Assembly: GCA_016795425.1 (NCBI GenBank)
Contig: JAEUHG010000165.1
Span: 21,024 to 85,023 of the forward strand
Direction of reading: 5' to 3'
Length of the DNA: 64,000 nt
From: Verrucomicrobiales bacterium
GTDB lineage: Bacteria > Verrucomicrobiota > Verrucomicrobiia > Limisphaerales > CAIMTB01
Positions 22,003-41,054 of this stretch are shown piece after piece. How positions within the stretch are numbered: the stretch's first letter is position 1; each line of letters starts with the position of its first letter. The position numbers and the translations under genes were made by a program. The notes beneath the pieces were generated by a model. That model saw nothing but the letters and a program-made list of their open reading frames with translations, searched no databases and was not told the DNA's origin.

Positions 22003-24570
22003 ATGCGCCTCCTGGCGACCCTGACGGTGCTCCTGGGAATTGCGGGCACGACCTTCGCCGTACCGACGGCTGAGGAAGGTCGCCGGGAATTTCTCCGCGG
22101 CGAGTATGACAAAGTCGTTCGCATGTCCGCGGAAGCGCTGGACGATCGACCGCGTGACGAAGCGTGGCACCGGCTGCGCACCGAAGCGTTGATGGCGGTG
22201 GGAAAATATCGCGAGGCCCATGCCGCGTTGACCAACGGGCTGGGGCAAATGCCGCGTAGCATTGTTCTTCGATGGCTCGGTCGGGAGGTCTACGCCTTGA
22301 ATGGGCAACCGGAGAAAGCGTCCGAAGCGGTGGCGGAAATTCCCCGTCTCGTGTCGCGCAGTCCCTGGGCCTATCGCGAGCCGCTGGATTTGATCACCGT
22401 CGGCCGGTCCCTGCTGGCGGCCGGAGTGGATCCCAAAGAGGTGCTTGATCGTCTCTACACCACCGTTCGCAAATCCGCCCCCGACCTCCGTGACATCTAT
22501 TTGGCGATCGGTGACCTGGCCCTGGAGAAGGGCGACTCGGCCCTTGCCGCCAAACATTTTGATGAAGGCCTGCGGAAATTCCCCGAGGACCCCGACCTGC
22601 ACTATGGCCGCGCCCGGGCTTTCTCGGATTCGGATCGCAAGGTGATGGGCACCGCTTTGGAGGCGGCGCTGAAGGCGAACCCCCGTCATCTCGCGAGTCT
22701 TCTGCAACTCGCCGACTACCGGATTGACGCGGAGGACTACGAGGGCGCGACCGAGACGCTGGACGAGATTCGAAAGACCAATCCGCACCTACCCGAGGCC
22801 TGGGCTTATACTGCGGTGATCGCCCACCTGCGCAATGACACGACGTCGGAAACCCGGGCTCGCACCGAAGCAACCAAGTTTTGGGATAGCAATCCGAAGG
22901 TTCCCCATCTCATTGGCCGCAAACTCTCCCAGAAGTATCGCTTCGCGGAAGGCGCCGCCCTGCAGCGGGAGGCGCTTCGCGCGCAACCGGATTTTCTTCC
23001 TGCCAAGGCGCAGCTCGCCAACGACCTCCTTCGACTCGGCGAGGACGAGGCCGGGTGGGAATTGATCCAGGAGGTTCACGAGAAGGACGGCTACGATGTC
23101 ACGGCCTACAACCTGGTGACCTTGAAGGACACCATGGCGTCGTACACCACCTTGACCAACGAGCATTTCATCGTACGGATGCACGAAAAAGAGGCGGCCA
23201 TCTACGGCCCCCGGGTCATGAACCTTCTCGAGCGCGCCCGGTCCACGCTAGCGGCCAAGTTCGACCTCACCCTGGTGGAGCCCACCACGGTCGAAATTTT
23301 CAGTGAGGCGAAAGACTTCGGGGTTCGCACCTTTGGCATGCCGGACAATCCGGGTTACCTCGGGGTCTGCTTCGGGCGCGTGATCACAGCCAACAGTCCG
23401 GCGGCGACCCGTTCCAAGACCGTCAACTGGGAAGCCGTTTTGTGGCACGAATTCTGCCATGTGGTGACCTTGCAACTCACCGCGAACAAAATGCCCCGTT
23501 GGTTGAGCGAAGGCATTTCGGTCTATGAAGAGCGCCTGGCGAACCCGGCGTGGGGCGAGGCCCTCAACCCGAAATATCGCGAGATGATCCTCGAGGGCGA
23601 ACTGACTCCCATCGGCAAGCTCAGCGCCGCGTTTCTCATCCCCAAGACCGATCTCCATCTGCAGTTCGCCTACTACCAGGCCTCGATCGTGGTCGAATTC
23701 CTGGTCGCACGATTCGGCACCGAGTCGTTGCGTAAAATTCTCGCCGACCTTCGCCAGGGCGTGTTCATCAACACGGCCATCGAGCGTCACGCCCAGCCTC
23801 TCGATGCCTTGGAAAAGGAATTCGCCGAATACGCCCGCAAGAAGGCCGAAGGACTCGCCCCGGACCTGGACTGGGAGAAGCCGGCCCGCCGCGGCCGGGG
23901 TGAAACAGGCATCGACCTCGCGTCTCGCGCCTTGTCCACCATCACGGGGCCCGCGACGAACAACTATTACCGCCTGATGGAAACGGCGGACCGCCTGCTG
24001 AGCGACGAGAAGTTCGACGAGGCTCAACCCAAACTCGAACTGCTCATCGAGCGGTACCCGAGCCAAACCGGGACCGATTCGGCCTACGCGATGCTGGCCC
24101 GACTCCACCGAGCCCGGGGCGACACCGACGCGGAAAGCCGGGTGCTGGAGCAATGGGCGTCGGTCGATGGGGAAGCCATCGCAGCCTACCTGCGCCTGAT
24201 GGAACTCTCCGAAGCCCGCAAGGACTGGAAATCCGTCGCCAGGAACGCGGATCGCTATTTGGCCGTCGACCCTCTGGTCCCTGACCCCTATCGCCATCTC
24301 GCCAGGGCCCAGGAGAATCTCGCCCTTGGCAGCGACGCCATTGCCACCTACCGCACCCTTCTCCGGCTCGACTCGCCCAACCCGTCCGAAGTTCATTTCG
24401 AACTCGCACGGTTGCTGGAGCCGATCGAACCCCAGGCAGCGCGGCGTCATTTGGTGCAATCCCTCGAGGAAGCCCCCCGCAATCGAGCCGCTCTGCGCCA
24501 GTTGCTGGGGACCAATGCCGCTCCCGAAATGCCGCCACCCCCGTCCCCGGGAGTGCAACGGAGACCTTGA
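22003..24570 (+). CDS. Secreted TPR-repeat protein with gluzincin (peptidase MA / M1-like) domain
   Basis: The likely start is MRLLATLTVLLGIAGTTFA (ATG 22003); the ORF opens at 21853. Multiple TPR-like helical repeats flank HEFCH...RWLSEG, which is an HExxH plus downstream Glu pattern. Confidence 0.8.
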   Translation: MRLLATLTVLLGIAGTTFAVPTAEEGRREFLRGEYDKVVRMSAEALDDRPRDEAWHRLRTEALMAVGKYREAHAALTNGLGQMPRSIVLRWLGREVYALNGQPEKASEAVAEIPRLVSRSPWAYREPLDLITVGRSLLAAGVDPKEVLDRLYTTVRKSAPDLRDIYLAIGDLALEKGDSALAAKHFDEGLRKFPEDPDLHYGRARAFSDSDRKVMGTALEAALKANPRHLASLLQLADYRIDAEDYEGATETLDEIRKTNPHLPEAWAYTAVIAHLRNDTTSETRARTEATKFWDSNPKVPHLIGRKLSQKYRFAEGAALQREALRAQPDFLPAKAQLANDLLRLGEDEAGWELIQEVHEKDGYDVTAYNLVTLKDTMASYTTLTNEHFIVRMHEKEAAIYGPRVMNLLERARSTLAAKFDLTLVEPTTVEIFSEAKDFGVRTFGMPDNPGYLGVCFGRVITANSPAATRSKTVNWEAVLWHEFCHVVTLQLTANKMPRWLSEGISVYEERLANPAWGEALNPKYREMILEGELTPIGKLSAAFLIPKTDLHLQFAYYQASIVVEFLVARFGTESLRKILADLRQGVFINTAIERHAQPLDALEKEFAEYARKKAEGLAPDLDWEKPARRGRGETGIDLASRALSTITGPATNNYYRLMETADRLLSDEKFDEAQPKLELLIERYPSQTGTDSAYAMLARLHRARGDTDAESRVLEQWASVDGEAIAAYLRLMELSEARKDWKSVARNADRYLAVDPLVPDPYRHLARAQENLALGSDAIATYRTLLRLDSPNPSEVHFELARLLEPIEPQAARRHLVQSLEEAPRNRAALRQLLGTNAAPEMPPPPSPGVQRRP

Positions 24571-24573
24571 GAC

Positions 24574-25431
24574 ATGAAACGCGCTGTCAGCGTCGCGATC
24601 ACCCTCGCCATGCTCGGGACGCTGGCGATGGCACAGCGACGTTTTGGCAGTCGGTGGTATCGAGAGAGCGCCATCTCCGACGAGGCGCGCACCGCGCGAG
24701 AGGTGGAATCGCACAGTACCGGCACTCCGACCTGGACCAATACCGCAGGATTCGAGAAGGACGTCTTCACCTTTGCCCGCGTTCGGTACGTCCAGGGCGG
24801 ACGCGGCGGGCGCGGAGGATGGTCCACCGACCTTCCGGATTCCGACCTCAACCTGTCCTTTCGACTTCAACAAATGACGTCGGTCCGCGTTGATCCCGAC
24901 GGACGTTTATTGCACCTCACCGATCCGGAATTATCGAACTACCCGTTCCTTTACATCGTGGAACCGGGCGGCTTGTGGCTTTCCGAGGAGGAAGTCGCGG
25001 CGTTGCGAAAGTACCTCCTGAACGGGGGATTCCTGATGCTCGACGACTTTTGGGGCGTGGACGAGTGGGAGAATGCCGAGGAGGTGATGCGGCAAGTCTT
25101 CCCGGATCTGGCGTTCCAGGAATTGCCGCTGGATCACGACCTCTACCAGCGCCCGTTCAAAATCGAAGCCAAAGGCCAGGTCCCGAATGTCGGGCGCGGC
25201 ATTCAAAGTCAGGACGATGGCATCACCTGGGAACGCCGCGACGCGCAAGTCGTGCATCACAAGGCGATCCTCGATGCCCGGGGACGCATCATGGTATTGG
25301 CGACGCACAACACCGACAATGGGGACGGGTGGGAGCGCGAGGGCGAAAACGATTATTATTTCCGGCAGTTCTCCGAGAAGATCGCGTATCCGCTCGGCAT
25401 TAATATCATCTTCCACATCATGACCCACTGA
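24574..25431 (+). CDS. DUF4159-family protein, secreted
   Basis: It has a signal peptide followed by YPFLYIVEPGGLWLSEEEVAALRKYLLNGGFLMLDDFWG, which is characteristic of DUF4159. It starts 3 nt after the preceding stop. Confidence 0.85.
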   Translation: MKRAVSVAITLAMLGTLAMAQRRFGSRWYRESAISDEARTAREVESHSTGTPTWTNTAGFEKDVFTFARVRYVQGGRGGRGGWSTDLPDSDLNLSFRLQQMTSVRVDPDGRLLHLTDPELSNYPFLYIVEPGGLWLSEEEVAALRKYLLNGGFLMLDDFWGVDEWENAEEVMRQVFPDLAFQELPLDHDLYQRPFKIEAKGQVPNVGRGIQSQDDGITWERRDAQVVHHKAILDARGRIMVLATHNTDNGDGWEREGENDYYFRQFSEKIAYPLGINIIFHIMTH

Positions 25432-25437
25432 AACCCG

Positions 25438-26523
25438 ATGAGCTTTCCATCGACCCCAGACGTCCCGCCTCCCCTGAGTCCAGCCCCCGCCGCCCCGGGC
25501 GACCTCCCGCAACCCGTTCCTCCCACACCGGAGGAAACCGATCGCCAAACCGTTGAACGCCTGGCGACATCGCGCGCGCGCATCGAAGGGGAACTCGGCA
25601 AGGTGATCGTCGGCCAGCGTGAGGTGATCGAACAAATCCTTATCGCGCTGTTGGGCGGCGGGCACTGCCTGATCACCGGCGCGCCGGGTCTCGCGAAGAC
25701 ACTGCTGGTGAAATCCATCGCCCAGATCTTCCATCTCCGGTTCCAGCGCATCCAATTCACCCCGGATTTGATGCCCGCGGACATCACCGGCACCGAGATT
25801 CTCCAGGACCACGGCAGTGAACGGCGCATGGTCTTCGTTCCTGGGCCAATCTTCGCCAACATGATCCTGGCGGATGAAATCAACCGAACGCCTCCCAAAA
25901 CCCAGGCGGCGTTGCTCGAGGCGATGCAGGAGCACCAAGTGACCGCGGCAGGGGTGCGGCACCCGCTGCACCCGCCCTTTTTCGTGCTCGCCACTCAGAA
26001 CCCCATCGAGATGGAAGGCACTTACCCCCTTCCGGAAGCGCAACTCGACCGGTTCATGTTCAACGTGGTCATGGACTACCTGCCCGAGACCGATGAAGTG
26101 GAGGTCATCCAACGGACCACTGGCAAACCTGCCGCCGCCATCGAAGCCCTCTTCCATGGCGAAGACGTCCTGCGCTTCCATGCCCTCGTCCGCCAGGTCC
26201 CGATCGCCGAGGAAATGGTGCGGTACGCCGTTCGCCTGGCCGCCGCATCGCGACCCCAGGGAGCGCAGGCTCCGGAGTTCGTGAAGCACTGGGTCACCTG
26301 GGGGGCAGGAACCCGCGCGGCTCAGTTCCTGGTGCTCGGGGCCAAAGCCCGAGCCCTGCTTCAGGGCCGGGCCCACGTGACCGTCGAGGATATCCGCGCC
26401 CTGGCCGGCCCAGTCCTCCGCCACCGCATTCTGCTGAACTACCGCGCCGAAGCCGAAAACGCGGGGGTGGAAACCATTATCCGGCGATTGCTGGAAACCG
26501 TCCCACCTCCCATTCCGTCCTGA
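25438..26523 (+). CDS. MoxR-family AAA+ ATPase
   Basis: Walker A is GHCLITGAPGLAKT and Walker B is ILADEINR. FVLATQNPIEMEGTYPLPEAQLDRF is the MoxR signature. Confidence 0.95.
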   Translation: MSFPSTPDVPPPLSPAPAAPGDLPQPVPPTPEETDRQTVERLATSRARIEGELGKVIVGQREVIEQILIALLGGGHCLITGAPGLAKTLLVKSIAQIFHLRFQRIQFTPDLMPADITGTEILQDHGSERRMVFVPGPIFANMILADEINRTPPKTQAALLEAMQEHQVTAAGVRHPLHPPFFVLATQNPIEMEGTYPLPEAQLDRFMFNVVMDYLPETDEVEVIQRTTGKPAAAIEALFHGEDVLRFHALVRQVPIAEEMVRYAVRLAAASRPQGAQAPEFVKHWVTWGAGTRAAQFLVLGAKARALLQGRAHVTVEDIRALAGPVLRHRILLNYRAEAENAGVETIIRRLLETVPPPIPS

Positions 26524-26528
26524 TCACC

Positions 26529-27485
26529 ATGTCCGGGTTTCCCAACCCGCCAACGGATCGATTCATCGATCCGACGGTGTTGATGACCATCCGCAACCTC
26601 GAGTGGCGAGCGCGCACGGTCGTCGAAGGGTTTTGGACTGGCCTTCACCGGAGTCCGTACCATGGATTCTCCGTCGAGTTTACCGAGTATCGCCAATACA
26701 CACCCGGCGACGACACCCGGTACCTGGATTGGCGGCTTCTGGGACGGAGCGACCGCTATTTCATCAAGCGGTTCGAGGACGAAACCAATCTTCGGTGCCA
26801 TCTCATCCTGGATCGCAGCCGGTCCATGGACTTCGGGTCCCTGGCCCACACGAAAGCGGAGTACGCCGCGACGCTGGCCGCCTGCCTGGCTTATTTTCTT
26901 CAGCGGCAGGGTGACGCGGCGGGTTTGCTCACCTTTGATGAAGCGGTGCGCGATTACCTTCCCGCCCGGCATCGCCCCGGCCATTTGCGACGCCTCCTGA
27001 TGACGCTGGAAAAGGAAGCTGCGGGGAAGGACACGGACCTCATCGCTCCTCTACGGCAGGCCGCGGAGATCATTCGCAAGCGCGGTCTCGTCGTGCTGGT
27101 TTCCGACCTTCTGGCGTCGGCCGACCAACTCGAATCCAGCCTGACGGTACTGGCGGCGGCCGGGCAGGAAATCTCGCTCTTCCAGATCCTCGATCCGGTG
27201 GAACTGAGCCTGGACCTGGGCGAACCGGCCTGGTTCGAAGATGTCGAGTCCGGGAGACAATTGTTTGTGGATCCGGCCGGCATTCGAAAGCGGTATCAGG
27301 AGCGGATGGAGGAGCATTCGAACAAGATCCAGGAAATATGCCAGCGACTGGGAATCGGGTTTCACCGTCTGGTCACGGATCAACCACTGGAGACCGCGTT
27401 GTTTGAATTTCTTCGCGACCGATCCAAGGCGCGACGCACGGTGCGTCGCTACACGCCGTCGGGTGGATGGCGAGCGAGTTCATGA
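26529..27485 (+). CDS. DUF58-domain protein (MoxR partner, degenerate VWA)
   Basis: FTEYRQYTPGDDTRYLDWRLLGRSDRYFIKRFEDE is the typical DUF58 N-terminal motif. Confidence 0.9.
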   Translation: MSGFPNPPTDRFIDPTVLMTIRNLEWRARTVVEGFWTGLHRSPYHGFSVEFTEYRQYTPGDDTRYLDWRLLGRSDRYFIKRFEDETNLRCHLILDRSRSMDFGSLAHTKAEYAATLAACLAYFLQRQGDAAGLLTFDEAVRDYLPARHRPGHLRRLLMTLEKEAAGKDTDLIAPLRQAAEIIRKRGLVVLVSDLLASADQLESSLTVLAAAGQEISLFQILDPVELSLDLGEPAWFEDVESGRQLFVDPAGIRKRYQERMEEHSNKIQEICQRLGIGFHRLVTDQPLETALFEFLRDRSKARRTVRRYTPSGGWRASS

Positions 27486-29584
27486 GCTTTCTCGCGCCAT
27501 TATTCCTGCTGGGTGCCGCCGCGGTGGCCTTGCCGGTGGTCTTTCACCTGATCCGACGAACCACCAAGGTTCGCACTCGGTTCAGTTCCCTGCTCTTTCT
27601 TTCTCCGACGCCTCCTCGCGTCACACGGCGCAGCCGGCTCGAGGACCTGCTCCTGCTCCTGCTCCGTTGCCTCGCTTTGGTTCTGCTGGCCTTCGGTTTC
27701 GCCCGGCCGTTCCTCAAGGACGCCACTTCCATCGACAACACGGCCGCCGCACCGAAACGCGTGCTGCACTTGGTCGATACCAGCGCCAGCATGCGGCGAC
27801 AGGGGCTTTGGGACAACGCGCTGGCCCAAGTCACGCGGTCGCTGCGCTCCGCCAATCCCACCGATGAGATGGCGGTATGGGCCTTTGATCGCCAAGCCCG
27901 ACCGGTCTTCTCGTTTGCCGAATGGAATGCCGCTTCGGCGGGCGAACGCTCCGCCCTGGCCGAATCGAGACTCCGTGCGCTCAGCCCGGGCTGGGGGGCC
28001 ACTCGGCTCGACGAAGCCCTGACGACCGCCGCGGAGGCCCTGGCGGATCGTTCCACCCAATCGTTCTCCGGGATTCAGCGCATCGTTGTCGTCAGCGACC
28101 TCCAGGAAGGCAGTCACCTGGAAGGATTGCAGGCCTTCGACTGGCCGAAGGGAATCGACGTCGCGGTGGAGCCGGTGAAACCCGCGCGCCCCGGCAACGC
28201 CGGCATCCAATTGGTGGCCGACTCCAACCAACTGCCGACCACCACCCAAACCGTGGTCCGAGTCCGGGTCGTCAACGCCCCCGATTCCACCCGCGGACGT
28301 TTCGAGGTCGGGTGGGCCAACCCCTCCGGCAATGGATTTCTCGGCACGGCCGAGGAGGTCCAACTCCCGGCCGGCATGACCAAGGTCGTGGCCCTCAACG
28401 TGCCGACCCATGCCCAGGTCAGCCAGGTGCTGTTGACGGGCGATGACGAGGACTTCGACAACCGCGCCTACCTGGTGCCGCCTCGCATGGCTGCAATCTC
28501 CGCCGTCTATTTCGGTAATGACCGCCGTGAAGAGGCGGGCAGCGCCTATTATTTCCTGGCCCGCGCCCTGCCGCCGACCGGCCGTCTGGCGGTCAAACTG
28601 GCGGCCCAGAAGCCGACCGACCCGGTGGATACCAAGACGCTGGCCGATGCCCGGATCTATTTCGTCGCCGATGCGCTGCCTGCCAGCCTGGCCACCGCAC
28701 TTCGACTTCAAGTCGCCACCGGCAAGACCGTGGTCGTTGCCCCTCGCAACACGGCGGCCCTGGCGTCGATCGCCCCCTTGCTTCAGGCCTCGACGGTGCC
28801 GGTCGAAGAGGCTGCCCCGAAGTCCTACGCCCTGCTGGGCACCCTGGATTTTCAGCACCCCATCCTCGCACCCTTCGCCGACCCGCGCTTCAGCGACTTC
28901 GCGCGCATCCATTTTTGGAAGTACCGGAGATGGGATGTCTCGGGTCAGCCTGGAGCCAATGTGGTGGCACGCTTCGACAATCAGGATCCGGCCTTGGTCG
29001 AGATTCCCATCGAGCGCGGGCGCGTCCTGGTGCTGACCAGTGGCTGGCACCCGGACGACAGTCAGTTGGCGTTGTCGACGAAGTTCGTGCCGTTGATCTG
29101 TTCCATCTGCGAGTTCACCGCCGAAGAACCTGTGGTGACCACGGCGTGGCGGGTGGGAGATCCCTTGCCGGTTCCTCCCGCGACGGGCGGTTCGGTGCGG
29201 ACCCTGAAAGTGCCCGACCAACCCGATCAGCCCTTCGCAACCGGGCAAACCCAGATCGCTGACACACCGCGACCTGGCATCTACGAAGTGACTTCGTCCG
29301 AAACCACCCTACGATACGCCGTGAATCTGGACGGATCGGAAAGCCGGACGGCGGTGTTACCCGTCGAATCGCTGGAAGCCCTCGGGACCCCACTGCGATC
29401 GCCGGGTGCCGGCCCGCAACCCGACCCGGTCCGCAAACAACAACTGGCCGCTGCCGACGCGGAAAACCGACAGAAATTGTGGCGTTGGTTAATGATCGCC
29501 ACACTGACGGTGCTCCTCGTCGAGTCGGCGGTCGCCGGTTGGAAAAGCCGCCGAATAACGGCAACGGGAGAGGCCACCGCATGA
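27482..29584 (+). CDS. BatA-N (double-TM aerotolerance-regulator N-terminal) / VWA-domain membrane protein
   Basis: MSFLAPLFLLGAAAVALPVVFHLIRR is the BatA_N motif. The VWA MIDAS-like motif is LHLVDTSASM. A C-terminal TM is LWRWLMIATLTVLLVESAV. The start makes an ATGA overlap with the DUF58 stop; 27467 is an alternative start. Confidence 0.85.
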   Translation: MSFLAPLFLLGAAAVALPVVFHLIRRTTKVRTRFSSLLFLSPTPPRVTRRSRLEDLLLLLLRCLALVLLAFGFARPFLKDATSIDNTAAAPKRVLHLVDTSASMRRQGLWDNALAQVTRSLRSANPTDEMAVWAFDRQARPVFSFAEWNAASAGERSALAESRLRALSPGWGATRLDEALTTAAEALADRSTQSFSGIQRIVVVSDLQEGSHLEGLQAFDWPKGIDVAVEPVKPARPGNAGIQLVADSNQLPTTTQTVVRVRVVNAPDSTRGRFEVGWANPSGNGFLGTAEEVQLPAGMTKVVALNVPTHAQVSQVLLTGDDEDFDNRAYLVPPRMAAISAVYFGNDRREEAGSAYYFLARALPPTGRLAVKLAAQKPTDPVDTKTLADARIYFVADALPASLATALRLQVATGKTVVVAPRNTAALASIAPLLQASTVPVEEAAPKSYALLGTLDFQHPILAPFADPRFSDFARIHFWKYRRWDVSGQPGANVVARFDNQDPALVEIPIERGRVLVLTSGWHPDDSQLALSTKFVPLICSICEFTAEEPVVTTAWRVGDPLPVPPATGGSVRTLKVPDQPDQPFATGQTQIADTPRPGIYEVTSSETTLRYAVNLDGSESRTAVLPVESLEALGTPLRSPGAGPQPDPVRKQQLAAADAENRQKLWRWLMIATLTVLLVESAVAGWKSRRITATGEATA

Positions 29585-32500
29585 CCCCTGAGACTCAACT
29601 CGGCCTACTAATGGACCCCCTGGTCCGGCGGCGTCGACGGACCCGATTGGCATGGCGTTTGGCGGCGGGTTGGGCGGTCGCAGCCGCGCTCGCCGCCGCG
29701 GTGTGGTTGGTGACTGGACTGGTGGGACGCACCCTTCCCGGGCTGGTTGCCGTGGTCGGTTTGGCCGGAGTCGCGGCGGCATGGTTTCTGGGCCGCCTTC
29801 CGAAGACGGGTGAACCGGACGCCCGAGTCATCGCGTCCGAGATTGAGGCGCGGCACCCCGAACTGCGGGGTCTGCTGCTCACCGCCGTCCAGCAGCATGA
29901 ACGTGCAGGCGATCGTCTCAACGTGCTGCAACAGCGAGTCGTCAGCGAAGCCCTCGCCCACGGGCGCACTCATGATTGGGCCAAAAGTGTGCCGACGGCA
30001 CGGCTGGGACTGGCGATGCTCACCCAATGCGCCGCGTTGGTCCTGTTCCTGGTCGTCTTGGGCCAATTGCTGCGTGCTCCCAAAGGAAATCTCGGCAGCC
30101 GACTCCTGGCCCAGGCTTTTGGAGTCACGGTCTCGCCCGGCGACATTTCCCTCGAACGCGGCGAGAGCCTGGTCGTCCTGGCGCGTTTCGGCAGCGAGGT
30201 GCCCAATGAAGTCGACCTCATCCTGGGCGACACCCCCACCACCGAACGGCGCATCCCCCTGACCCGCAGTCTGTCAGATCCGGTCTTCGGCGGCACCGTT
30301 CCGGAAGTGGGCCAGAGCCTGAGCTACCGCATCGAATACGGTGGCAAGCGTTCCCGCGATTACCAGGTCACCGTGTTCGAGCATCCCCGACTCGAACGCG
30401 CCGATGCCGGGCTCACCTTTCCGTCGTACACCGGACAGGAACCGCGGCGCATCGAAGACACCAAGCGAATCACCGCCGTGGAGGGCACCTCTCTCGACCT
30501 CGCACTGCAGCTGAACAAACCGGTCACTTCGGCGGTACTGGTTCCGCGCGACACCAATGAGCTCCGACTGACGCTCACCCTCGCCACCAACCAAGCCCGG
30601 GCGGAACTGACCAACCACCTGATGCTCGCCAAGGGGACCTACGATCTCAAACTGGTCGACGCCGACGGACGAACCAACAAAGGGATCACCACCTTTGTTT
30701 TCGACGTCGTCCCCAACCGAACGCCGGAACTCAAATTGGCGCATCCCCGAGGCGATATTCGTCCGTCACCCCTCGAGGAAATCCGCTTCGAAGGCACGGT
30801 ATGGGACGACTTCGGAGTGCTCGCGCACGGTCTCGCCTTCAGCCTTGTCGAACAGGAACCGCGCATCGTTGAGCTTGGGACCAACGTCGCCCGCGGCGAA
30901 CGCCGGTCGTTTCAAACCTCCCTGCGCCTCGAGGAATTCGGCGTGCTGCCCGACCAATTGGTCTCGTATCACTTATGGGCCGATGACATCGGGCCGGACG
31001 GGAAAGTCCGTCGCACCACCAGCGATCTGCTCTTCGCCGAAGTGCGCCCCTTCGAAGAGATCTTCCGCGAAGGTTCGGGTGGCGAAGGGGAATCCCAGGA
31101 CTCGCAGTCCGGCAACTCCCGCAATCCCACCGGCGAACTGATCAAGCTGCAAAAGCAGATCATCAGCGCCACCTTCAACCTGCGCCGCGACGCCAAGGGA
31201 GCCGATGCAAAATTCAAAGCGGACTTGGAGACGATCCAGGAATCCCAACAGCACGCTCTGGAACAGGCGGAAGGCCGGGCGGAAGCCGCGGGGGGTCCAC
31301 GCACCCAGGAGCTTTGGGATAAAGTGACCGAACAAATGAGCACCGCCATCGTCCGCCTCAAGGACGCGGCGTCCGGTCCCGCACAATTGAGTCCCGCTTT
31401 GGCGTCCGAGCAGGCGGCGCATCAAGCTTTGCTCAAACTCCAGGCCCGCGAGACCGAAGTCACACGTTCGCGCAGCCGGGGCCAGGGCGGTGAAGGTGGC
31501 GGAAACCAACGCCAGATCGACGAACTCGAATTGACCCAATCCGAGAATCGCTACGAGACCCAACGACAAGCCCAGGCGGATGTGACCCCGGAACGCCGCG
31601 AACAACTCCAGGTTCTCAACCGTCTTCAGGAACTCGCCCGCCGCCAGCAGGACATCAATCAACGCCTCAAGGAACTCCAGACCGCCCTCCAGGAAGCTGA
31701 CACCGAGCGGGAGCGCGAGGAGGTCCGGCGCCAACTCAAGCGCCTTCAGGAAGAGCAACAGCGCATGCTCGCCGACATGGACGAACTGGAACAGCGCACC
31801 CAGCGCCCGGAGAACCAGGCCCGCATGTCGGAGATGCGCCAGCGCCTCGAACAAACCCGTCAGGACATGGAACGCGCCAGCCAGGCCACCGGCGATGGCT
31901 CCGTCTCCCAGGCAGTGGCCGCCGGCACCCGGGCCCAGGAGCGCCTTCAGTCGATGCGCGATGAACTGCGGCAACAGAACTCGAGCCAGTTCGCCGAGGA
32001 CCTTCGCAACCTGCGCGCCGACGCCCGTGACATCGAGAAGCGGCAGGAGGAAATCAACCGGCAGCTCAACGCCCAGCCCCAGTCCAGGACCGCCCCATCC
32101 CAGCGACGCCTCTCCGACGACTCCAGCAATGCCGCCACTGAGAACCTCACTCAGCTCGGGCAACAACGGGAACGACTGACCAATCTGGTCGACCGCGCCA
32201 CCCGGCTCTCGCAGGCCGCCGAATCCACCGAACCGCTCGTCTCTCAACACCTCTACGATTCCCTGCGTCAATTGAGCCAACAGGAAGCCAGCACGCTCAA
32301 GCAGGCCCAGCAGGACCTGATCGATCGCGGGCAAATGACCCAAAGCCTCTACGAACGCCTCAAGGCCGCGGAACAGGGCGAAGGCAGCGCCAAGGCCCTC
32401 GAACTCGCTTCGGAACTCCTCCGCCAGGGCATGCCGGCAGAGGCCAGTCAGGCGGGCGAACGCGCCGAGGCAGGCATGGATATTCTCCGCCGAGGTGTCG

Positions 32501-33549
32501 AGCGCGCAGCAGAAAGTGTGCTCGGCGACGATACCTCGGCATTGCGAATGGCCCGCGACGAATTGCAGATCCTCTCCCAACAATTGGAGCAGGAGATCCG
32601 ACAATCTTCGGCACAGAACGGCGCTTCCGCCGGATCCTCCGATGAACCGCGCGAGAACCCGAACGCCGCCGGCCAGAACGAAGGCCGGCAACCCGGTCCA
32701 GGCCAGGCGGGCAACGAGAACCGGGACTTAGCCCAAAATGATCGAGCCAATGCCGGCGGCCAGAACGGATCCGACTCCCAGCCGCCGGGCTCGCAACCCG
32801 GTCCAAACCCGGGCCAGGAAGGCTCGGGCAGTGCTCCCGACGCCGAAGGCCAACAGCAAGCCGGCACGCAACCCGGCGGCCGGGAGGGTCAACCACAGCG
32901 ACAAGCCCAAGCCCAAGGTCAGGGTCAGGGTGAGGGTCAGGGTCAAGGTCAAGGTCAAGGTGAACCCCAAGCAGGCCAAAACGACGCCCAAGCCCAAGCC
33001 CAAGCCCAAGCCCAATCACAAAACGGGCGCGGTCGGGGCGAAGGTCAGGCTCAAAGGGCCGGCAACGACGCACGCGGCCAGCGGGGAGCGGCAAATCGAT
33101 CGGGACGCGCCGACGGCGGCGGCGGCAATGGAGGTTCCGGACGCACCGGTGGGGTGGACTTCGAGCAACTAGTCGGAGGCGACGCATCTCGGAGCGGCAC
33201 GGGAGGTTCCGGCCCCATCACGACCGAAGGATTCACCGAATGGTCGGATCGCCTACGCGAGGTCGAAGAAATGATCGACGTTCCCGATCTTCGCAATGAC
33301 GTTGCCACGGCGCGGGATCGCGCGCGACGGACGCGCCAGGAACTGCGGCGCGACCTGAAGAAGCCCGATTGGGCGGTCGTACGGCTGGAAATCCTGGGGC
33401 CGCTCATCGAGGTGGGACGGCAATTGGACGACGAATTGGCAAGGCGGACGACGAAGAACCCGATGCTTCCGATTGATCGCGACCCGGTTCCGAATCGCTA
33501 TTCGGAGTTGGTGCGTCGTTATTACGAGGAATTGGGGCGGGACCGCTGA
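29581..33549 (+). CDS. Very large membrane-anchored coiled-coil / low-complexity protein (tentatively DUF4175-like)
   Basis: The start makes an ATGA overlap with the BatA-like stop. N-terminal TM helices include LAWRLAAGWAVAAALAAAVWLV. A beta-rich region follows, then about 600 aa of Q/E/R-rich heptad-like sequence, then a G/Q/A/N low-complexity stretch. The C-terminus is conserved-looking (RYSELVRRYYEELG). Confidence 0.8.
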   Translation: MTPETQLGLLMDPLVRRRRRTRLAWRLAAGWAVAAALAAAVWLVTGLVGRTLPGLVAVVGLAGVAAAWFLGRLPKTGEPDARVIASEIEARHPELRGLLLTAVQQHERAGDRLNVLQQRVVSEALAHGRTHDWAKSVPTARLGLAMLTQCAALVLFLVVLGQLLRAPKGNLGSRLLAQAFGVTVSPGDISLERGESLVVLARFGSEVPNEVDLILGDTPTTERRIPLTRSLSDPVFGGTVPEVGQSLSYRIEYGGKRSRDYQVTVFEHPRLERADAGLTFPSYTGQEPRRIEDTKRITAVEGTSLDLALQLNKPVTSAVLVPRDTNELRLTLTLATNQARAELTNHLMLAKGTYDLKLVDADGRTNKGITTFVFDVVPNRTPELKLAHPRGDIRPSPLEEIRFEGTVWDDFGVLAHGLAFSLVEQEPRIVELGTNVARGERRSFQTSLRLEEFGVLPDQLVSYHLWADDIGPDGKVRRTTSDLLFAEVRPFEEIFREGSGGEGESQDSQSGNSRNPTGELIKLQKQIISATFNLRRDAKGADAKFKADLETIQESQQHALEQAEGRAEAAGGPRTQELWDKVTEQMSTAIVRLKDAASGPAQLSPALASEQAAHQALLKLQARETEVTRSRSRGQGGEGGGNQRQIDELELTQSENRYETQRQAQADVTPERREQLQVLNRLQELARRQQDINQRLKELQTALQEADTEREREEVRRQLKRLQEEQQRMLADMDELEQRTQRPENQARMSEMRQRLEQTRQDMERASQATGDGSVSQAVAAGTRAQERLQSMRDELRQQNSSQFAEDLRNLRADARDIEKRQEEINRQLNAQPQSRTAPSQRRLSDDSSNAATENLTQLGQQRERLTNLVDRATRLSQAAESTEPLVSQHLYDSLRQLSQQEASTLKQAQQDLIDRGQMTQSLYERLKAAEQGEGSAKALELASELLRQGMPAEASQAGERAEAGMDILRRGVERAAESVLGDDTSALRMARDELQILSQQLEQEIRQSSAQNGASAGSSDEPRENPNAAGQNEGRQPGPGQAGNENRDLAQNDRANAGGQNGSDSQPPGSQPGPNPGQEGSGSAPDAEGQQQAGTQPGGREGQPQRQAQAQGQGQGEGQGQGQGQGEPQAGQNDAQAQAQAQAQSQNGRGRGEGQAQRAGNDARGQRGAANRSGRADGGGGNGGSGRTGGVDFEQLVGGDASRSGTGGSGPITTEGFTEWSDRLREVEEMIDVPDLRNDVATARDRARRTRQELRRDLKKPDWAVVRLEILGPLIEVGRQLDDELARRTTKNPMLPIDRDPVPNRYSELVRRYYEELGRDR
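32902..33016 (+). repeat. In-frame hexanucleotide microsatellites inside the coiled-coil gene
   Basis: The run is (CAAGCC)2, then about 9 units of GGTCAG/GGTCAA/GGTGAG, then a spacer, then (CAAGCC)5. It encodes QAQAQGQGQGEGQGQGQGQGE...AQAQAQAQAQSQ. Confidence 0.9.
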
Positions 33550-33556
33550 CTTCACG

Positions 33557-35965
33557 ATGCCCGCCTTCTTTGCTTTCATGCAGTTGACGTTCGCCGGTTG
33601 GTCCTGGCTGGCACCCGCCATGGCCATTTCCCTGGTGGCGCTGGCGATACTCGCGTGGAGTTACCGCAGCCGCGGACCGGTCGGCCTGCGGCTGGCCTGT
33701 CTGGTGCTCAAACTCCTCGGCATTGCCGCCCTGGCCGTCTGCCTTCTTGAACCCTTGCGCACCGGCCAGCGGGCACGCCCGGGCGCGAATCTTTTCGCGG
33801 TGGTTGCCGACAACAGCCAGGGCCTTCAGATCAAGGACGCAGGACAGTCCGCTCACCGCGGCGACCGATTGAAGGGCTGGTTGGAGCCGGTTCCCGGTGG
33901 ATGGCAGAACGAGCTTTCGGAGAGTTTCGAGATTCGGCGGTACCTCTTCGACTCCCGCTTGCAGGGACTGACTGATTTCGCCGACCTCAATTTCGACGGC
34001 CGTTATTCCTCCATCCTGACCTCGCTCCGCACCCTGGCGGACCGGATGAAGGGCCGACCGTTGGCGGGTGTTTTGCTCTTCACCGACGGCAACGCCACGG
34101 ATCTGCCTCCGGGTGGACCCGATCTTTCCGGACTTCCACCGATCTATCCGGTTGTCGTCGGCGAAAAACTCGCGGTCCAGGACATCTCTATTGCGCAGGT
34201 GGCCGTCAGTCAGTCGGCCTTCGAGGACCAGCCAATCGCCATTCAGGGTGAAATCCAGGCCCCGGGGTTTCGCGGGCAACGCATCACCGCCCGGCTGCGC
34301 GATCCTTCGGGCCGGGTGGTCACCGAGGAGACCCAGGTCGCGCGCAATGCCGATGGCACCGTGCCGTTTCGGTTCAATCCGAAACCCGATGAACCCGGGG
34401 TCGTCTTTTACGAACTCTCCACCTCCCTTTCCGGCGATGCCTCGGCAGCGGGAGCCGGTGCGACGAATTCGTCGCAGGAGGCCACTCTGATCAACAACAC
34501 CAAAGTTCTCGCGGTGGATCGCGGCCGGGGGCCCTATCGGATTCTGTATGTCTCCGGCCGACCCAACTGGGAATTCAAGTTCCTGCGCCGCGCCATCGAC
34601 GAGGATCCTCAACTGCGGCTCTCGGCCCTGATTCGCGTCGCGCGGCGCGAGCCGAAGTTCGAGTTTCGCGGGCGCGCCGGCGAGACCAGCAATCCGCTCT
34701 TCCGCGGCTTCGGCAATCAGACCACCGAGGAGGTCGAGCGTTATGACCGCCCCGTCCTGGTTCGGCTGAACGCGCCGGGCGAAGCCGAGCGGAGCCATGA
34801 GTTTCCGAACTCCGAAGAGGAACTGTACCGCTACCAGGCGATCATCCTCGACGACATCGAAGCCGGGTTCTTCAGTCCCGACCAGGCAGCCTTGGTGCAG
34901 CGATTCGTCTCCGAACGCGGCGGTGGCCTTCTCATGCTCGGCGGCATGGAATGCTACTGCGAGGGCGGGTACCATCGCACACCGATCGGTGATCTCCTGC
35001 CCGTCTACCTGGACCGCGCAGAGACGCCGGCAACGCAACCTCCAGTTCATTTCGAACTGGCGCGCGAAGGATGGTTACAGCCCTGGGCCCGGTTGCGGGA
35101 CACCGAAGCGGACGAACGCCTCCGCATCGAGGGCATGCCGGCGTTTGCCGTAGCCAATCGGGTTCGCGGCATCAAACCCGGCGCCAGCGTCATTGCCACC
35201 GGCCGCGACGACGCCGGCCAAACGCTTCCCGCCCTTGCCATTCAACGCTTCGGACGCGGACGCACCGGCGCACTGCTCATCGGCGACCTTTGGCGCTGGG
35301 GCATGCGTGATCCGCAGTCGAGGGCGGACATGGAAAAGGCGTGGCGCCAATTGGCCCGCTGGTTCGTGGCCGAAGTCCCGACCCGCGTCGACCTCACCGT
35401 CGAACCCATCCCCGGCGACGCCCTTGGTTCCGTCCAACTTCAGGTTCGCGTGCGGGACGCCAAATTCGCGCCGCTCGATACTGCGGCGGTCACGGTGGAT
35501 GTCACTCCGGTGGTATTCGGCACCAACGCGGTGGCCGACGCCGGCACCTCCACCAATACCACCATCCGCCTTCGCGCGGAACCGTCGACGGCCGAGGCCG
35601 GGATGTACCAGGCCACCTTTCTGCCGCGTGGTGCGGGAGGTTTTTCGGCACTGGCGGTGGTGACGAACGATCTGGGTGCCGAGATTGGCCGCGACCAGGC
35701 AGGCTGGGCGAGCGATCCAGCGGCCGAGGAATTCCGTTCGTTGCAGCCCAATCTATCACTACTGCAACTCCTTGCCTCCAAGACCGGCGGCAAGGTCCTG
35801 ACGATCGACGAACTACCCGACCTGGTCCGGCGACTTCCCACCGAGCGCGCGCCCATCATGGAATCCTGGTCCTATCCGGTCTGGCACACCACTGCCGTCT
35901 TCGGTTTCGCCCTGGCTTGTTTCGTCGCCGAGTGGGGCTTGCGCCGCTGGAAAGGACTCCCGTGA
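33557..35965 (+). CDS. Large membrane protein of the MoxR/Bat-type operon (VWA-like and class-I glutamine-amidotransferase-like regions; tentative)
   Basis: The likely start is MPAFFAFMQLTFAGWSWLAPAMAISLVALAIL (ATG 33557). It has N-terminal TM helices. GVLLFTDGNATD is VWA-like and YQAIILDDIEAGFFSPDQAALVQRFVSERGGGLLMLGG is GATase1-like. A C-terminal TM is AVFGFALACFVAEWGL. Confidence 0.7.
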   Translation: MPAFFAFMQLTFAGWSWLAPAMAISLVALAILAWSYRSRGPVGLRLACLVLKLLGIAALAVCLLEPLRTGQRARPGANLFAVVADNSQGLQIKDAGQSAHRGDRLKGWLEPVPGGWQNELSESFEIRRYLFDSRLQGLTDFADLNFDGRYSSILTSLRTLADRMKGRPLAGVLLFTDGNATDLPPGGPDLSGLPPIYPVVVGEKLAVQDISIAQVAVSQSAFEDQPIAIQGEIQAPGFRGQRITARLRDPSGRVVTEETQVARNADGTVPFRFNPKPDEPGVVFYELSTSLSGDASAAGAGATNSSQEATLINNTKVLAVDRGRGPYRILYVSGRPNWEFKFLRRAIDEDPQLRLSALIRVARREPKFEFRGRAGETSNPLFRGFGNQTTEEVERYDRPVLVRLNAPGEAERSHEFPNSEEELYRYQAIILDDIEAGFFSPDQAALVQRFVSERGGGLLMLGGMECYCEGGYHRTPIGDLLPVYLDRAETPATQPPVHFELAREGWLQPWARLRDTEADERLRIEGMPAFAVANRVRGIKPGASVIATGRDDAGQTLPALAIQRFGRGRTGALLIGDLWRWGMRDPQSRADMEKAWRQLARWFVAEVPTRVDLTVEPIPGDALGSVQLQVRVRDAKFAPLDTAAVTVDVTPVVFGTNAVADAGTSTNTTIRLRAEPSTAEAGMYQATFLPRGAGGFSALAVVTNDLGAEIGRDQAGWASDPAAEEFRSLQPNLSLLQLLASKTGGKVLTIDELPDLVRRLPTERAPIMESWSYPVWHTTAVFGFALACFVAEWGLRRWKGLP

Positions 35966-37125
35966 ACCCAGCTGCCCCCGGGCGTTTCATCAGGTTGCCT
36001 CGACCTCGACCCCTTCCCTGGGAAACGCGGCTGGGGAGCGACGCGCTCCCGGAAGCCCGGCGTTCGCATCATCCCGCGTGCTGTCCGGCGCGAAGCGTCG
36101 TGGAGTGCGGCAGTCCCCTGCCGCTTTCCTCTCCAACGCAATTCCATTGGGGGCCCTGGCTGATTCTGTCGTTGCTCGTCGGCCTCCTGGCCTTCACCGC
36201 GTCCGCCGAGACCCACTCCCCCGGCGTGCGCGTCATCGCGGTCGTCGGTGCGCCGGGCGAACCGGAGTTCGGCACCAATTTCCTCGCTCAATACCAAGCC
36301 TGGCGCGACGCCTGCGCGAAAGCCGGTGTGCCGATCACCGGCATCGGCGCCGAAACCGATTCCTCGACCAACGACCTCGACCGCCTTCAGGCGCTAATCG
36401 ACGCGGAACCCAAGACCGGTTCCGATGAACTGTGGCTGGTGCTGATCGGGCATGGCACGTTCGATGGCAAGGAAGCGAAATTCAATCTGCGCGGCCCGGA
36501 CTTGTCCGCCACCAACCTCGCCATCCAGTTGCGACCGTTCACTCGGCCCATCGCCGTGATCAACACGGCCTCCAGCAGCGGTCCCTTTCTCCCGGCACTC
36601 GCCGCCTCCAACCGTATCGTCATCACCGCCACGCGCAGCGGCAACGAACAGAATTTCGCGCGCTTTGGACAATACTTCGCCGGCGCCGTGGTTGATCCGA
36701 AATCGGACATCGACAAAGACGGGCAGACCTCGTTGCTCGAGGCGTTCCTGAGTGCCTCGGCCCGCGTGGCGGAGTTTTACAAACGCGAGGGACGACTGGC
36801 ATCGGAACATTCCCTCATCGATGACAACGGGGATGGACTCGGGACGCCGGCGAATTGGTTTCGCGGGCTGCGCGCGACCAAGAAGCCGCGTGAGAATGCC
36901 GCGGTGGATGGCCTGCGCGCCCACCAATCCCATCTGCTGCGCAGTCCGGAGGAGATCCAACTCGATCCGGCACGCCGAGTCCGGCGCGATCAATTGGAGC
37001 GCGAACTGGCCAAACTTCGGGACACCAAGAAGGACACGCCGGAGGACGAGTACTTCCAGAAACTCGAGGCGCTCCTTCTGGATTTGGCGCGGGTGTATGA
37101 GCCCTCCCCCGCGCCGAGCCGTTGA
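35962..37125 (+). CDS. Secreted legumain (peptidase C13)/caspase-fold homologue with Ser at the nucleophile position
   Basis: I propose a GTG start overlapping the preceding stop (GTGA); GTG 36100 is an alternative. The signal or TM segment is WGPWLILSLLVGLLAFTASA. LVLIGHGTFDG and VINTASSSGPF...RIVITATRSGNEQNFA are collinear with legumain ..TDHGSTG.. and ..IEACESGSM..NVYATTAANPRESSYA, as I recall that sequence. Confidence 0.6.
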   Translation: MNPAAPGRFIRLPRPRPLPWETRLGSDALPEARRSHHPACCPARSVVECGSPLPLSSPTQFHWGPWLILSLLVGLLAFTASAETHSPGVRVIAVVGAPGEPEFGTNFLAQYQAWRDACAKAGVPITGIGAETDSSTNDLDRLQALIDAEPKTGSDELWLVLIGHGTFDGKEAKFNLRGPDLSATNLAIQLRPFTRPIAVINTASSSGPFLPALAASNRIVITATRSGNEQNFARFGQYFAGAVVDPKSDIDKDGQTSLLEAFLSASARVAEFYKREGRLASEHSLIDDNGDGLGTPANWFRGLRATKKPRENAAVDGLRAHQSHLLRSPEEIQLDPARRVRRDQLERELAKLRDTKKDTPEDEYFQKLEALLLDLARVYEPSPAPSR

Positions 37126-39228: not shown

Positions 39229-40083
39229 TCAGGCGTCCAGATCTTCGCGGACGATCTTCAGATCCACGGTCATCTGCTGGGACGCGCGCCCTTTGAAATT
39301 GCCGCGGATCGGCGCGGCATCGGCGTAGTCGCGACCCACCGCCATTTTGACATGGTGCTGATCCACGGGGCAGTTGTTGGTGGGATCCAGGCCCAGCCAT
39401 CCATGTCCGGGCAGGTACACCTCGACCCAAGCGTGCGAGGCGAGTTCGCCGCGAAGATTCTCACCGGGCTTCACATAAAGGTACCCGCTGACATATCGGG
39501 CCGGGATGCCGGAAATGCGGCACAACCCGATCATGATATGGGCAAAGTCCTGGCAGACCCCGCGTTTGAGGGCCAGCACCTCAAGCAGCCGGGTGTGGAC
39601 CGTGGTGGCGGCAGGATCATAAGTGAACTCGCGGTAGACATGGTGCAGCATCGCAAGCGCCAAGCCCCAGGCATCGTCGTGCCCCATTCCGACATCCTGC
39701 GCCATGCGCCAGACCTCGACGTCCTGGGCCACATACTCGCTGCGCTGCAGAAAATCGTAACACCGCTCCAACCGCAGGCATTCACCCAGCCGCGACCTGG
39801 GAAAAGACACGCCCTCCAGGCGTCGCGGGTCGCGCAGCGTGGTGACCACGGAGCGCGCCTCGATCTCGAGGGATTCGTGCGGTTCCCCGATATAGAAGTG
39901 GTCCACCAGGTTCAAGTGGAAGTCGTGATAGCGCCGCAGGGAAGCCACCGGGCTGGTCTTCAATTCGTAATGGTGGCATTCCTGGCCGTCGTCCGAAACG
40001 GGCTGAAGCCGCACTTCGTTGAAGTTCTCCGAGACCGGCGATGAGTACCGGTAGCGAGTGCGATGGACGATGTTCAGTCGCAT
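39229..40083 (-). CDS. Transglutaminase-family protein (Bact_transglu_N + transglutaminase core)
   Basis: The start is MRLNIVHRTRYRYSSPV (ATG 40083); the ORF opens at 40167. The Cys-His-Asp set is GVCQDFAH, ASHAWVEVY and LGLDPTN. Confidence 0.9.
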   Translation of the reverse strand: MRLNIVHRTRYRYSSPVSENFNEVRLQPVSDDGQECHHYELKTSPVASLRRYHDFHLNLVDHFYIGEPHESLEIEARSVVTTLRDPRRLEGVSFPRSRLGECLRLERCYDFLQRSEYVAQDVEVWRMAQDVGMGHDDAWGLALAMLHHVYREFTYDPAATTVHTRLLEVLALKRGVCQDFAHIMIGLCRISGIPARYVSGYLYVKPGENLRGELASHAWVEVYLPGHGWLGLDPTNNCPVDQHHVKMAVGRDYADAAPIRGNFKGRASQQMTVDLKIVREDLDA

Positions 40084-40181
40084 GATCCCCCCCAGGGGCA
40101 GCAAAGGTTGCCGCACTCGGCCGCTGGACCGCATCCGAAATCCGCACGAAAATTCCCGTCCACCCACCGCTCGTCAGTCGG

Positions 40182-41054
40182 TCATAGCGGGGTGACCTCG
40201 ACGGCGACATTCACGCGGTGTTTGCCGCCACCGACAATGATGCCGCTCACCGGGCTCACTTCGGAGAAATCCCGACCGTAGGCCACCGTGATATGCTCGA
40301 ACTCGGGCATCAGGTTGTTGGTCGGATCGAAGTCCACCCAGCCGTAGCCCGGACAATAGACCGAGAGCCAGGCGTGCGAGGCGTCCGCGCCCACGAGCTG
40401 TTTGGCTTCCTCGGAACGATAGGTGCGCAAATAGCCGCTGACATACCGCGCCGCGAGACCGATGGACCGCAGGCAGCCCAGGGCCAGGTGGGTAAAATCC
40501 TGGCAAACACCGCGGCGCCGCTCGAGCACTTCCTCCAGCGGCGTCGCCACCGTCGTGGCTTCGGCGTCGAAGGTGAACTCCTCGTGGATCCGCCGGTTCA
40601 AATCGAGCATCGCCTCCAATAACGGACGGCCCGCGGTAAAACTTGTGGCGGCATAGGCGGCGAGTTCCGGGGAGGGGCGCACGTGCGGCGATTCGAACAC
40701 GAATTGGTGCGCCTCGAGCGTTTCGGAACTCACCGGTTCCCGGAGCATCGTCACCACCTCGCTCCAGGGAGGACTCTGTTCCGGCGAGGGCGGCAAACCC
40801 GGCATGAGCCGCACGACGCTCTCCGCTTCGATTTCCAGACTCGCATGGAGTTCCTGGACACTGAAGAAGCAGACCCGATTGCCGAAGTAATCGGACCGCA
40901 TCTTGCGGACCGCCGGCTTGGGTGAGATCCGCAGATCCCAGCCTTCGCGATGCTGCACCGGCGTCGTCCTGGGCTTCACCCGGGCCGCATGGTGCGACAC
41001 CGTCACCGGCTCGCTGTACTCGTAGATCGTCCGATGGCGGATCCGGTAGTTCAT
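40182..41054 (-). CDS. Transglutaminase-family protein (Bact_transglu_N + transglutaminase core)
   Basis: It starts MNYRIRHRTIYEYSEPV. The catalytic set is GVCQDFTH, ASHAWLSVY and VDFDPTN. The start overlaps the upstream gene's stop by 4 nt. Confidence 0.9.
   Translation of the reverse strand: MNYRIRHRTIYEYSEPVTVSHHAARVKPRTTPVQHREGWDLRISPKPAVRKMRSDYFGNRVCFFSVQELHASLEIEAESVVRLMPGLPPSPEQSPPWSEVVTMLREPVSSETLEAHQFVFESPHVRPSPELAAYAATSFTAGRPLLEAMLDLNRRIHEEFTFDAEATTVATPLEEVLERRRGVCQDFTHLALGCLRSIGLAARYVSGYLRTYRSEEAKQLVGADASHAWLSVYCPGYGWVDFDPTNNLMPEFEHITVAYGRDFSEVSPVSGIIVGGGKHRVNVAVEVTPL

Follow-up and report, generated by a model that had tools for sequence, protein, structure and literature searches.

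Peptidases of clan CD, among them the caspases and legumain, are built on a six-stranded central sheet and five helices in the order β1-α1-β2-α2-β3-(small hairpin)-α3-β4-β5-α4-α5-β6 (PMC4357240). The fold also occurs in a pseudopeptidase: in Arabidopsis RAPTOR1, the caspase cysteine has become a serine, an adjacent cysteine is buried, and the domain is placed for substrate recruitment (PMC10933368). A second relevant type of system is the Bat (Bacteroides aerotolerance) operon, which combines genes for a MoxR ATPase (AAA_3), a DUF58 protein and a membrane protein with BatA_N and VWA domains. To our knowledge, MoxR-DUF58-BatA/VWA operons are very widespread and still lack an assigned molecular job. 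In Borrelia burgdorferi, VWFA-domain proteins are encoded beside a MoxR ATPase, and one of these proteins, BB0173, is an inner-membrane protein (PMC5700661). The vWA-MoxR conflict systems with caspase-like effectors (PMC7159879) are a different type of system. Here, we describe a gene at the end of a MoxR/VWA operon in a 64,000-nucleotide stretch of DNA from Verrucomicrobiales bacterium (contig JAEUHG010000165.1, positions 21,024 to 85,023; hereafter the window), whose product is confidently modelled as a clan CD protein with a serine at the place of the nucleophile cysteine. Clan CD pseudo-peptidases and MoxR/VWA operons are already known kinds. What is new is the family, its serine-for-cysteine state, its EF-hand-type loops and its fixed place in the operon: it is in none of the family libraries that we searched, and our literature searches returned no description of the gene or of the operon form that carries it.

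The gene and the features of its product are given below in window coordinates. Residues are counted from position 36127, which makes the two residues of most interest His109 and Ser149.

36100..37125, + strand: probable coding sequence of a cysteine-less legumain-like protein of 341 amino acids (open frame, start at GTG 36100)
36151..36207, + strand: N-terminal hydrophobic segment GPWLILSLLVGLLAFTASA, then ET; predicted signal peptide or membrane anchor (hydropathy scan)
36226..36822, + strand: predicted clan CD (caspase/legumain-fold) domain, residues 34-232 (AlphaFold model and Foldseek)
36448..36456, + strand: Gly108-His109-Gly110, directly after strand β3; His109 is the catalytic-His equivalent and Gly110 its conserved Gly (alignment, conservation)
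36565..36579, + strand: Thr147-Ala148-Ser149-Ser150-Ser151, after strand β4; Ser149 is at the nucleophile-Cys place (hhalign, hmmsearch, phmmer)
36631..36669, + strand: conserved block T169-R-S-G-N-E-Q-N-F-A-R-F-G181, aligned with legumain T-A-A-N-P-R-E-S-S-Y-A
36706..36741, + strand: EF-hand-type 12-residue loop D194-I-D-K-D-G-Q-T-S-L-L-E205 (DxDxDGx[VTI]SxxE), running into helix α5
36820..36855, + strand: second acidic EF-hand-type loop D232-D-N-G-D-G-L-G-T-P-A-N243, after strand β6
36967..37095, + strand: C-terminal pair of long helices, residues 281-323 (H281-299 and H306-323 in the model, predicted local distance difference test score (pLDDT) ~95-98)

Two AlphaFold models of the protein were obtained, one from 30 sequences with a pLDDT of 81 and a second from 137 diverse sequences with a pLDDT of 93.4 and a predicted template modelling score of 0.88. 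Read along the chain, the second model runs β1 (35-40)-α1-β2 (70-73)-α2-β3 (102-107)-small hairpin-α3-β4 (142-146)-β5 (163-167)-α4-α5-β6 (230-232), which is the caspase/clan CD order. Foldseek, run against PDB structures, found 69 matches at E ≤ 1e-3, of which the best 50 all belong to clan CD. Caspase-11 and caspase-9 ranked highest (E ~4e-6), followed by metacaspase 9 and MALT1; the top set also held caspase-7, -3 and -4, CED-3, GSU0716, jack bean legumain, SAVED-CHAT and PIGK. Matches of the first model agreed with this and also took in prolegumain and Raptor. These clan CD matches have template modelling scores of only 0.4-0.6 and sequence identities of 8-14%. Of the catalytic features of the clan, the His at the end of β3 with its Gly is present, as Gly108-His109-Gly110 lies right behind strand 102-107. 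The catalytic Cys at the end of β4 is absent: the residue there is Ser149, and no Cys occurs at this position in 271 aligned proteins (the query and the 270 relatives closest to it or to its profile, the basis of the residue counts below) or at 81 loci. From the models and their structural matches we are confident that the protein has the clan CD (caspase/legumain) fold.

Searches with the window protein against Pfam and NCBIfam gave no relevant match, no model reaching its cut-off, and family profiles searched against PDB sequences returned chance matches only. When 106 family members were scanned singly against Pfam, the commonest family was Peptidase_C13 (PF01650), found below threshold in 20 of the 106 with a best E-value of 4.6e-4, where chance would be expected to bring any one Pfam family up in ~0.04 of the 106 members. 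In nine members scanned individually, these matches scored 12.7-17.8 bits against a gathering cut-off of 22.8. They span profile positions ~100-190 and so cover the His, Cys and third blocks; human legumain, which aligns to the PF01650 profile with no net gaps, has its His at position 120 and its Cys at position 161, inside the matched region. Because Peptidase_C13 recurs, the matches span three blocks and the structure matches are to clan CD only, we do not consider the legumain signal a product of chance. The clan CD homology proposed for this gene in a preliminary description, made from the sequence alone, could have been refuted at this point and was instead borne out by both Foldseek and the recurrent sub-threshold Peptidase_C13 matches.

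We then placed the catalytic residues by alignment. The peptides LVLIGHGTFDG, VINTASSSGPF and RIVITATRSGNEQNFA, which the preliminary description had set against legumain as collinear blocks, are all present in frame, as are the His codon CAT (36451-36453) and the Ser codon TCC (36571-36573). The human legumain sequence used equals PDB 4aw9_A except for one engineered substitution. Over 78 columns (E ~0.1), hhalign of the family profile with human legumain paired His109 with His148, Ser149 with Cys189, Ser151 with Ser191 and Gly152 with Gly192. All three methods, hhalign, hmmsearch and pairwise phmmer, set GHG on DH148G, the first Ser of ASSSG on Cys189 of ACESG, and ATRSGNEQNFA on TTAANPRESSYA. 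The hmmsearch alignment with the family profile kept this register and added the β1 block (VVGAxG on VAGSNG), and several independent pairwise phmmer alignments left it unchanged. Each single legumain alignment is weak; together they agree with the three collinear blocks and with the serine that had been proposed for the nucleophile place.

The local sequence fits the same register. Ser149 ends a seven-residue hydrophobic or small stretch, IAVINTA, as the legumain Cys follows MVFYIEA and the caspase-3 Cys follows KLFIIQA. The S-x-S-[AG] of the family mirrors the C-x-S-G of legumain, making Ser151 the equivalent of the Ser in CxSG and position 147 that of the S1-pocket residue at -2. As far as alignment and motif can tell, Ser149 as the equivalent of legumain Cys189 is well supported. 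With an unverified caspase-3 sequence, hhalign gave no useful alignment; hmmsearch aligned its His block. We also considered position 147 as the true nucleophile place and rejected it: all alignment methods put Cys189 on 149, the correspondence of C-x-S-G with S-x-S-[AG] fits only the 149 register, and position 147 also carries Ala, Gly and Leu.

To this register we added the conservation of each residue. His109 and Gly108 are present in 271/271 sequences, which upholds the earlier statement that the His is retained, and Gly110 and Ser151 in 269/271 each. Position 149 is Ser in 246 sequences, Ala in 21, Pro in three and Glu in one. Cys, with which Ser might have alternated among orthologues, never occurs there. 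Ser149 is therefore replaced in 25/271 sequences (9%); among 150 representatives at 50% identity, 86% have Ser and 14% do not. Where Ser149 is missing, the motif reads, for example, NSAAAS, NTAPAS or NTAACS, and GHG is kept in every case. One such sequence, L044 (NTSAAS), comes from a species genome and has the GATase1-like gene of the operon just upstream on the same strand, on a 6.4-kb contig too short for the rest of the operon. Cysteines near the nucleophile place are found only at -2 (33%) or +1 (11%): position 147 is Thr in 120, Cys in 89, Ala in 29 and Gly in 18 sequences, and position 150 is Ala in 141, Ser in 95 and Cys in 30. At position 147 (codon at 36565-36567, Thr in the window), Cys leads among the 150 representatives with 53%, and in both of the phyla in which the family is found it alternates with Thr, Ala, Gly and Ser; this Cys recalls the buried Cys beside the Ser of Arabidopsis Raptor.

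At the codon level, Ser149 is encoded across 81 loci by TCG (41), TCC (24), TCT (8), TCA (5) and AGC (2), with one GCG (Ala), and Ser151 always by AGY. Such synonymous variety at position 149 points to long-standing purifying selection and rules out a base-call error or a pseudogene. These data bear on a sceptical explanation, namely that the likeness to legumain is fortuitous, or that the Ser codon stems from faulty sequencing or from a mutation that recently inactivated the gene of a true cysteine protease. It draws on the absence of Pfam, NCBIfam and sequence-based PDB matches for the window protein, on the E-value of the single hhalign comparison and on the fact that TCC is one transversion from TGC. 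Set against clan CD taking all of the best 50 Foldseek places, the frequency of Peptidase_C13 among family members, and all four TCN codons but no Cys at this position across 81 genomes, in a family under strong purifying selection, we consider it extremely improbable.

The family is large. A word-indexed search returned more than 7,500 matches, whose source names, where shown, were all "hypothetical protein"; most were unnamed, and none had a Pfam domain. At 50% identity, the matches at E ≤ 1e-3 fall into at least 3,162 clusters, and relatives are encoded in at least 599 species-representative genomes, of which the best 80 are nearly all labelled Verrucomicrobiota or Planctomycetota. Identity is 40-60% across the two phyla. 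Some operon-bearing records (L008, L015, L020, L041, L057, L067 and L073) bear the titles of metagenome-assembled genomes of Klebsiella, Bifidobacterium, Bifidobacteriaceae, Candidatus Acidoferrum or Binatia; they are probably mislabelled or mis-binned, and not true finds beyond Verrucomicrobiota and Planctomycetota. Long family members revealed no informative domain fusions; one has DUF6807, probably from a merged downstream gene.

Beyond the His and Ser blocks, three further regions are strongly conserved. The first is the block at residues 169-181 (T169 in 269/271, E174 in 257, N176 in 227, F/Y177 in 248, R179 in 251, F180 in 255 and G181 in 260), which aligns with a segment of loop L5 that, together with its aromatic residue, binds substrate in legumain (PMC4357240). 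We infer that this block retains peptide binding. The second is the loop at residues 194-205 (D194 in 271/271, D196 in 267, D198 in 270, S202 in 271 and E205 in 269). Its sequence fits the EF-hand consensus of 12 residues, D-x-[DN]-x-D-G-x-[ILV]-x-x-x-E, and the model shows an exit helix at 203-220. The third is the second acidic loop (D233 in 270/271, N234 in 251, D236 in 269, G239 in 263 and D/E at position 243 in 212), which is preceded by the invariant Glu227 (270/271) and by His228, and which was modelled with confidence only from the deeper alignment. EF-hand_5 was found below threshold in 16/106 members, second only to Peptidase_C13, and Dockerin_1 in 2/106, and the two loops may bind Ca2+. 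N120 and D125 are also invariant or nearly so, and R287, E291, Y309 and E314 are conserved in the C-terminal helices. The protein has one N-terminal hydrophobic segment, which ends in ASA and is followed by ET, and such a segment is found in 241/259 family members with a complete N-terminus. On this basis, the protein is probably exported.

We favour, at a probability of roughly 60%, a pseudo-protease in the role of a periplasmic, probably Ca2+-dependent, non-cutting binding subunit of the MoxR/VWA membrane complex. Rather than cutting peptides, it would hold a protein or peptide partner in the remnant substrate groove and by loops that Ca2+ orders, much as the His-Ser pseudo-caspase domain of Raptor serves as a docking and substrate-positioning module. 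We read the protein as non-cutting because Ser149 is dispensable, giving way to Ala, Pro or Glu while the His is invariant, and because the equivalents of Asn42 and of the S1 residues are unconserved. The legumain triad is Cys189-His148-Asn42, with Arg44, His45 and Glu187 forming the S1 pocket. Of these residues, the protein keeps the His only. In a low-confidence extension of the alignment, the Asn42 equivalent is position 43 (Pro in 129, Ala in 68 and Gly in 34 sequences) and the Glu187 equivalent is position 147, which is T, C, A, G or S. The residue at -2 to the nucleophile is also an S1 residue in caspases (PMC4357240). Where the preliminary description had left the choice between a pseudo-protease or scaffold and a rare Ser-nucleophile variant, the variable position 149, the invariant His and the unconserved Asn42 and S1 positions lean towards the former.

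The same conservation can be read in favour of catalysis. On that account, the protein would be an active Ser-His hydrolase or transpeptidase on a clan CD scaffold, with Ser151, or Ser149 where present, as its nucleophile, processing a partner within the MoxR/VWA complex, perhaps with activation by Ca2+ as in metacaspases. Purifying selection with synonymous codon change on His109, Gly110, Ser151 and the 246 sequences with Ser149, the strong conservation of the L5 substrate-binding block and the two EF-hand-type loops would all suit such an enzyme. However, the His is unchanged in the 25 sequences that have lost Ser149, and homology alone accounts for the conservation of Ser151, which corresponds to the non-nucleophilic CxSG serine of legumain. 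Neither a third residue at the Asn42 position nor an S1 residue is conserved. Cysteine proteases normally lose their activity when the Cys is exchanged for Ser, which also counts against this account, and we regard it as unlikely. A slightly longer shot is its most specific version, in which the family would be a working Ca2+-switched Ser-His enzyme (Ser151 or Ser149) that processes or ligates a MoxR/VWA partner. If that were true, clan CD would gain its first natural serine-nucleophile lineage, and MoxR/VWA operons a first biochemical handle.

The acidic loops suggest another possibility, that the protein serves chiefly to bind or sense Ca2+ in the periplasm and has the protease-like fold only as a frame, its invariant His and acidic residues binding metal and not peptide. 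Most of the invariant residues are indeed acidic or polar and sit in the two DxDxDG-type loops (D194, S202, D233 and E227), in line with the sub-threshold EF-hand_5 and Dockerin_1 matches, and a link to metal insertion is often made for MoxR/VWA systems (PMC9976466, PMC13036017). Still, a metal-only role leaves the conservation of the L5 substrate-edge block and of GHG unexplained, and it overlaps with the favoured pseudo-protease reading without excluding it. We give it little credence as the protein's main role.

Several points weigh against the non-cutting binding subunit. Invariance of His109 and Gly108, and near-invariance of Gly110 and Ser151, in a family that spans at least 599 species is stronger than a pure scaffold needs, and chemistry, or tight ligand binding, could persist at the site. 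The equivalence of Ser149 with Cys comes from weak alignments, motif logic and strand position rather than from a superposition. Ca2+ binding, export, complex formation and inactivity are each predictions. In addition, more distant clusters, among the ~3,000 that match at E ≤ 1e-3, might carry Cys.

Among described families, Peptidase C13 (legumain, PIGK; PF01650) is the closest by sequence and the top sub-threshold Pfam family. It shares with the new family a collinear β1 (VVGAPG versus VAGSNG), His-Gly, [CS]-x-S-G and T-x-x-x-x-E-x-x-[FY]-A, and the fold matches include plant legumain and PIGK. The new family differs in having Ser, Ala, Pro or Glu for the nucleophile Cys and Pro, Ala or Gly for Asn42, and in the loss of Arg44/His45 and Glu187. 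Two EF-hand-type loops set it apart, as does a short helical hairpin where legumain has its prodomain, and it is bacterial, predicted to be exported, operon-linked and below the PF01650 cut-off in score. The C14 peptidases (caspases, metacaspases, MALT1) and clan CD at large provide the best structural matches, the element order, the β3-α3 hairpin and the His-Gly on L3 (definition in PMC4357240), whereas the new protein has no Cys on L4 and no sign of an inter-subunit cleavage site. The Raptor RNC domain also combines the clan CD fold, a Ser for the caspase Cys and a docking or substrate-positioning role within a larger complex (PMC10933368). Raptor is, however, a eukaryotic, cytosolic, 150-kDa multidomain protein without EF-hand loops, and no specific sequence relationship to it is detectable. 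We see Raptor as the best functional parallel, with a likeness that would lie in the mode of working and not in family membership.

As an annotation, the assignment is solid and testable, with no surprise in principle. It offers a concrete hypothesis for one operon subunit, as a peptide- or partner-binding module, and candidate residues for point mutants (H109, S149, S151, D194 and D233). A large bacterial lineage would thereby be added to the few clan CD pseudo-peptidases that, like Raptor, keep the His and have Cys replaced by Ser. An active site would instead mean a new catalytic type for the caspase/legumain fold.

The genomic neighbourhood upstream of the gene, annotated by Pfam matches and hydrophobic segments, is as follows.

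24574..35965, + strand: upstream operon genes, comprising the six below
24574-25431, + strand: DUF4159 protein
25438-26523, + strand: MoxR AAA+ ATPase (AAA_3; Pfam E 5e-62)
26529-27485, + strand: DUF58 protein (Pfam E 4e-50)
27467-29584, + strand: BatA_N and VWA membrane protein (Pfam E 8e-17)
29479-33549, + strand: large membrane protein of ~1,300 amino acids with no confident domain, a faint DUF4175 match only, and three N-terminal hydrophobic segments
33473-35965, + strand: GATase1-like membrane protein of ~800 amino acids with two hydrophobic segments

Each of the three large neighbours has two or three hydrophobic segments. Related loci were taken with 10 kb of flanking sequence, and the GATase1-like gene is directly upstream on the same strand in 81/84 of them, in both phyla; the other three have no upstream sequence. 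Where 10 kb upstream is available, the order MoxR, DUF58, BatA/VWA, large protein, GATase1-like protein and clan CD protein is nearly always kept, and the ~1,300- and ~800-amino-acid partners are as strictly syntenic as the gene itself. Downstream, the next gene in the window encodes a ThiF/rhodanese protein on the opposite strand, and the downstream gene differs among genomes. Among the conserved genes of this MoxR/VWA operon in Verrucomicrobiota and Planctomycetota, the clan CD gene comes last, which is the position that the preliminary description had given it. Compared with Bat-type operons, this version adds DUF4159, the ~1,300-amino-acid membrane protein, the GATase1-like membrane protein and the clan CD protein.

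Two further observations concern the surroundings. On the same strand, positions 21853-25431 hold a gene for a 905-amino-acid TPR protein with a Peptidase_MA_2 (metallopeptidase-like) domain, followed by the DUF4159 gene, and both may be in the same operon. On the opposite strand, positions 39229-43636 encode two transglutaminase-like proteins (Bact_transglu_N and Transglut_core) and a circularly permuted ATP-grasp/Alpha-E protein. This cluster is common to the open reading frames of the window and to L001, the closest relative with a long contig (13435-17750 there).

Finally, we determined where translation of the gene is likely to begin. The open frame runs from 35962 to a TGA stop at 37123-37125 (387 codons), and its GTG at 35962 overlaps the TGA of the upstream gene, as the preliminary description had observed in taking 35962-37125 as the gene. 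The stop and the overlap stand; the start probably does not, and the feature is rather ~36100-37125. Comparison with relatives and the N-terminal length of the family make a start near GTG 36100 more likely than one at GTG 35962. Codons 1-34 after GTG 35962 are only ~38% identical to L001, whose protein is 86% identical overall, and starting there would add 46 poorly conserved codons. At 36100, L001 carries TTG, likewise a start codon. Ahead of strand β1, the family has a median of 42 amino acids, against 44 from GTG 36100 and 90 from GTG 35962. In locus L002, a protein of normal length (329 amino acids) has a start that overlaps the upstream stop, so such overlap is a habit of the family, one that from sequence comparison does not seem to apply in the window genome.

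Between the upstream stop and the signal-peptide region lies a 75-nucleotide block (36060-36135) of which 73/75 bases are identical in L001, where its flanks are only ~65-80% identical. GTG 36100 lies within it, as does a hairpin (GCGGCAG-TCCC-CTGCCGC) with TTTCC behind it, and the block may be a translational or attenuator element. Among the 84 loci, it was found in L001 only. The block was rejected as a repeat or known RNA: it is single-copy in the window, no Rfam family matches it credibly, and its fold z-score is only -2.2. The open reading frame list also contains a 594-amino-acid frame at 35341-37125, in the same reading frame as the gene and beginning within the upstream gene, which shows that open frames extend far past real genes in this GC-rich genome.

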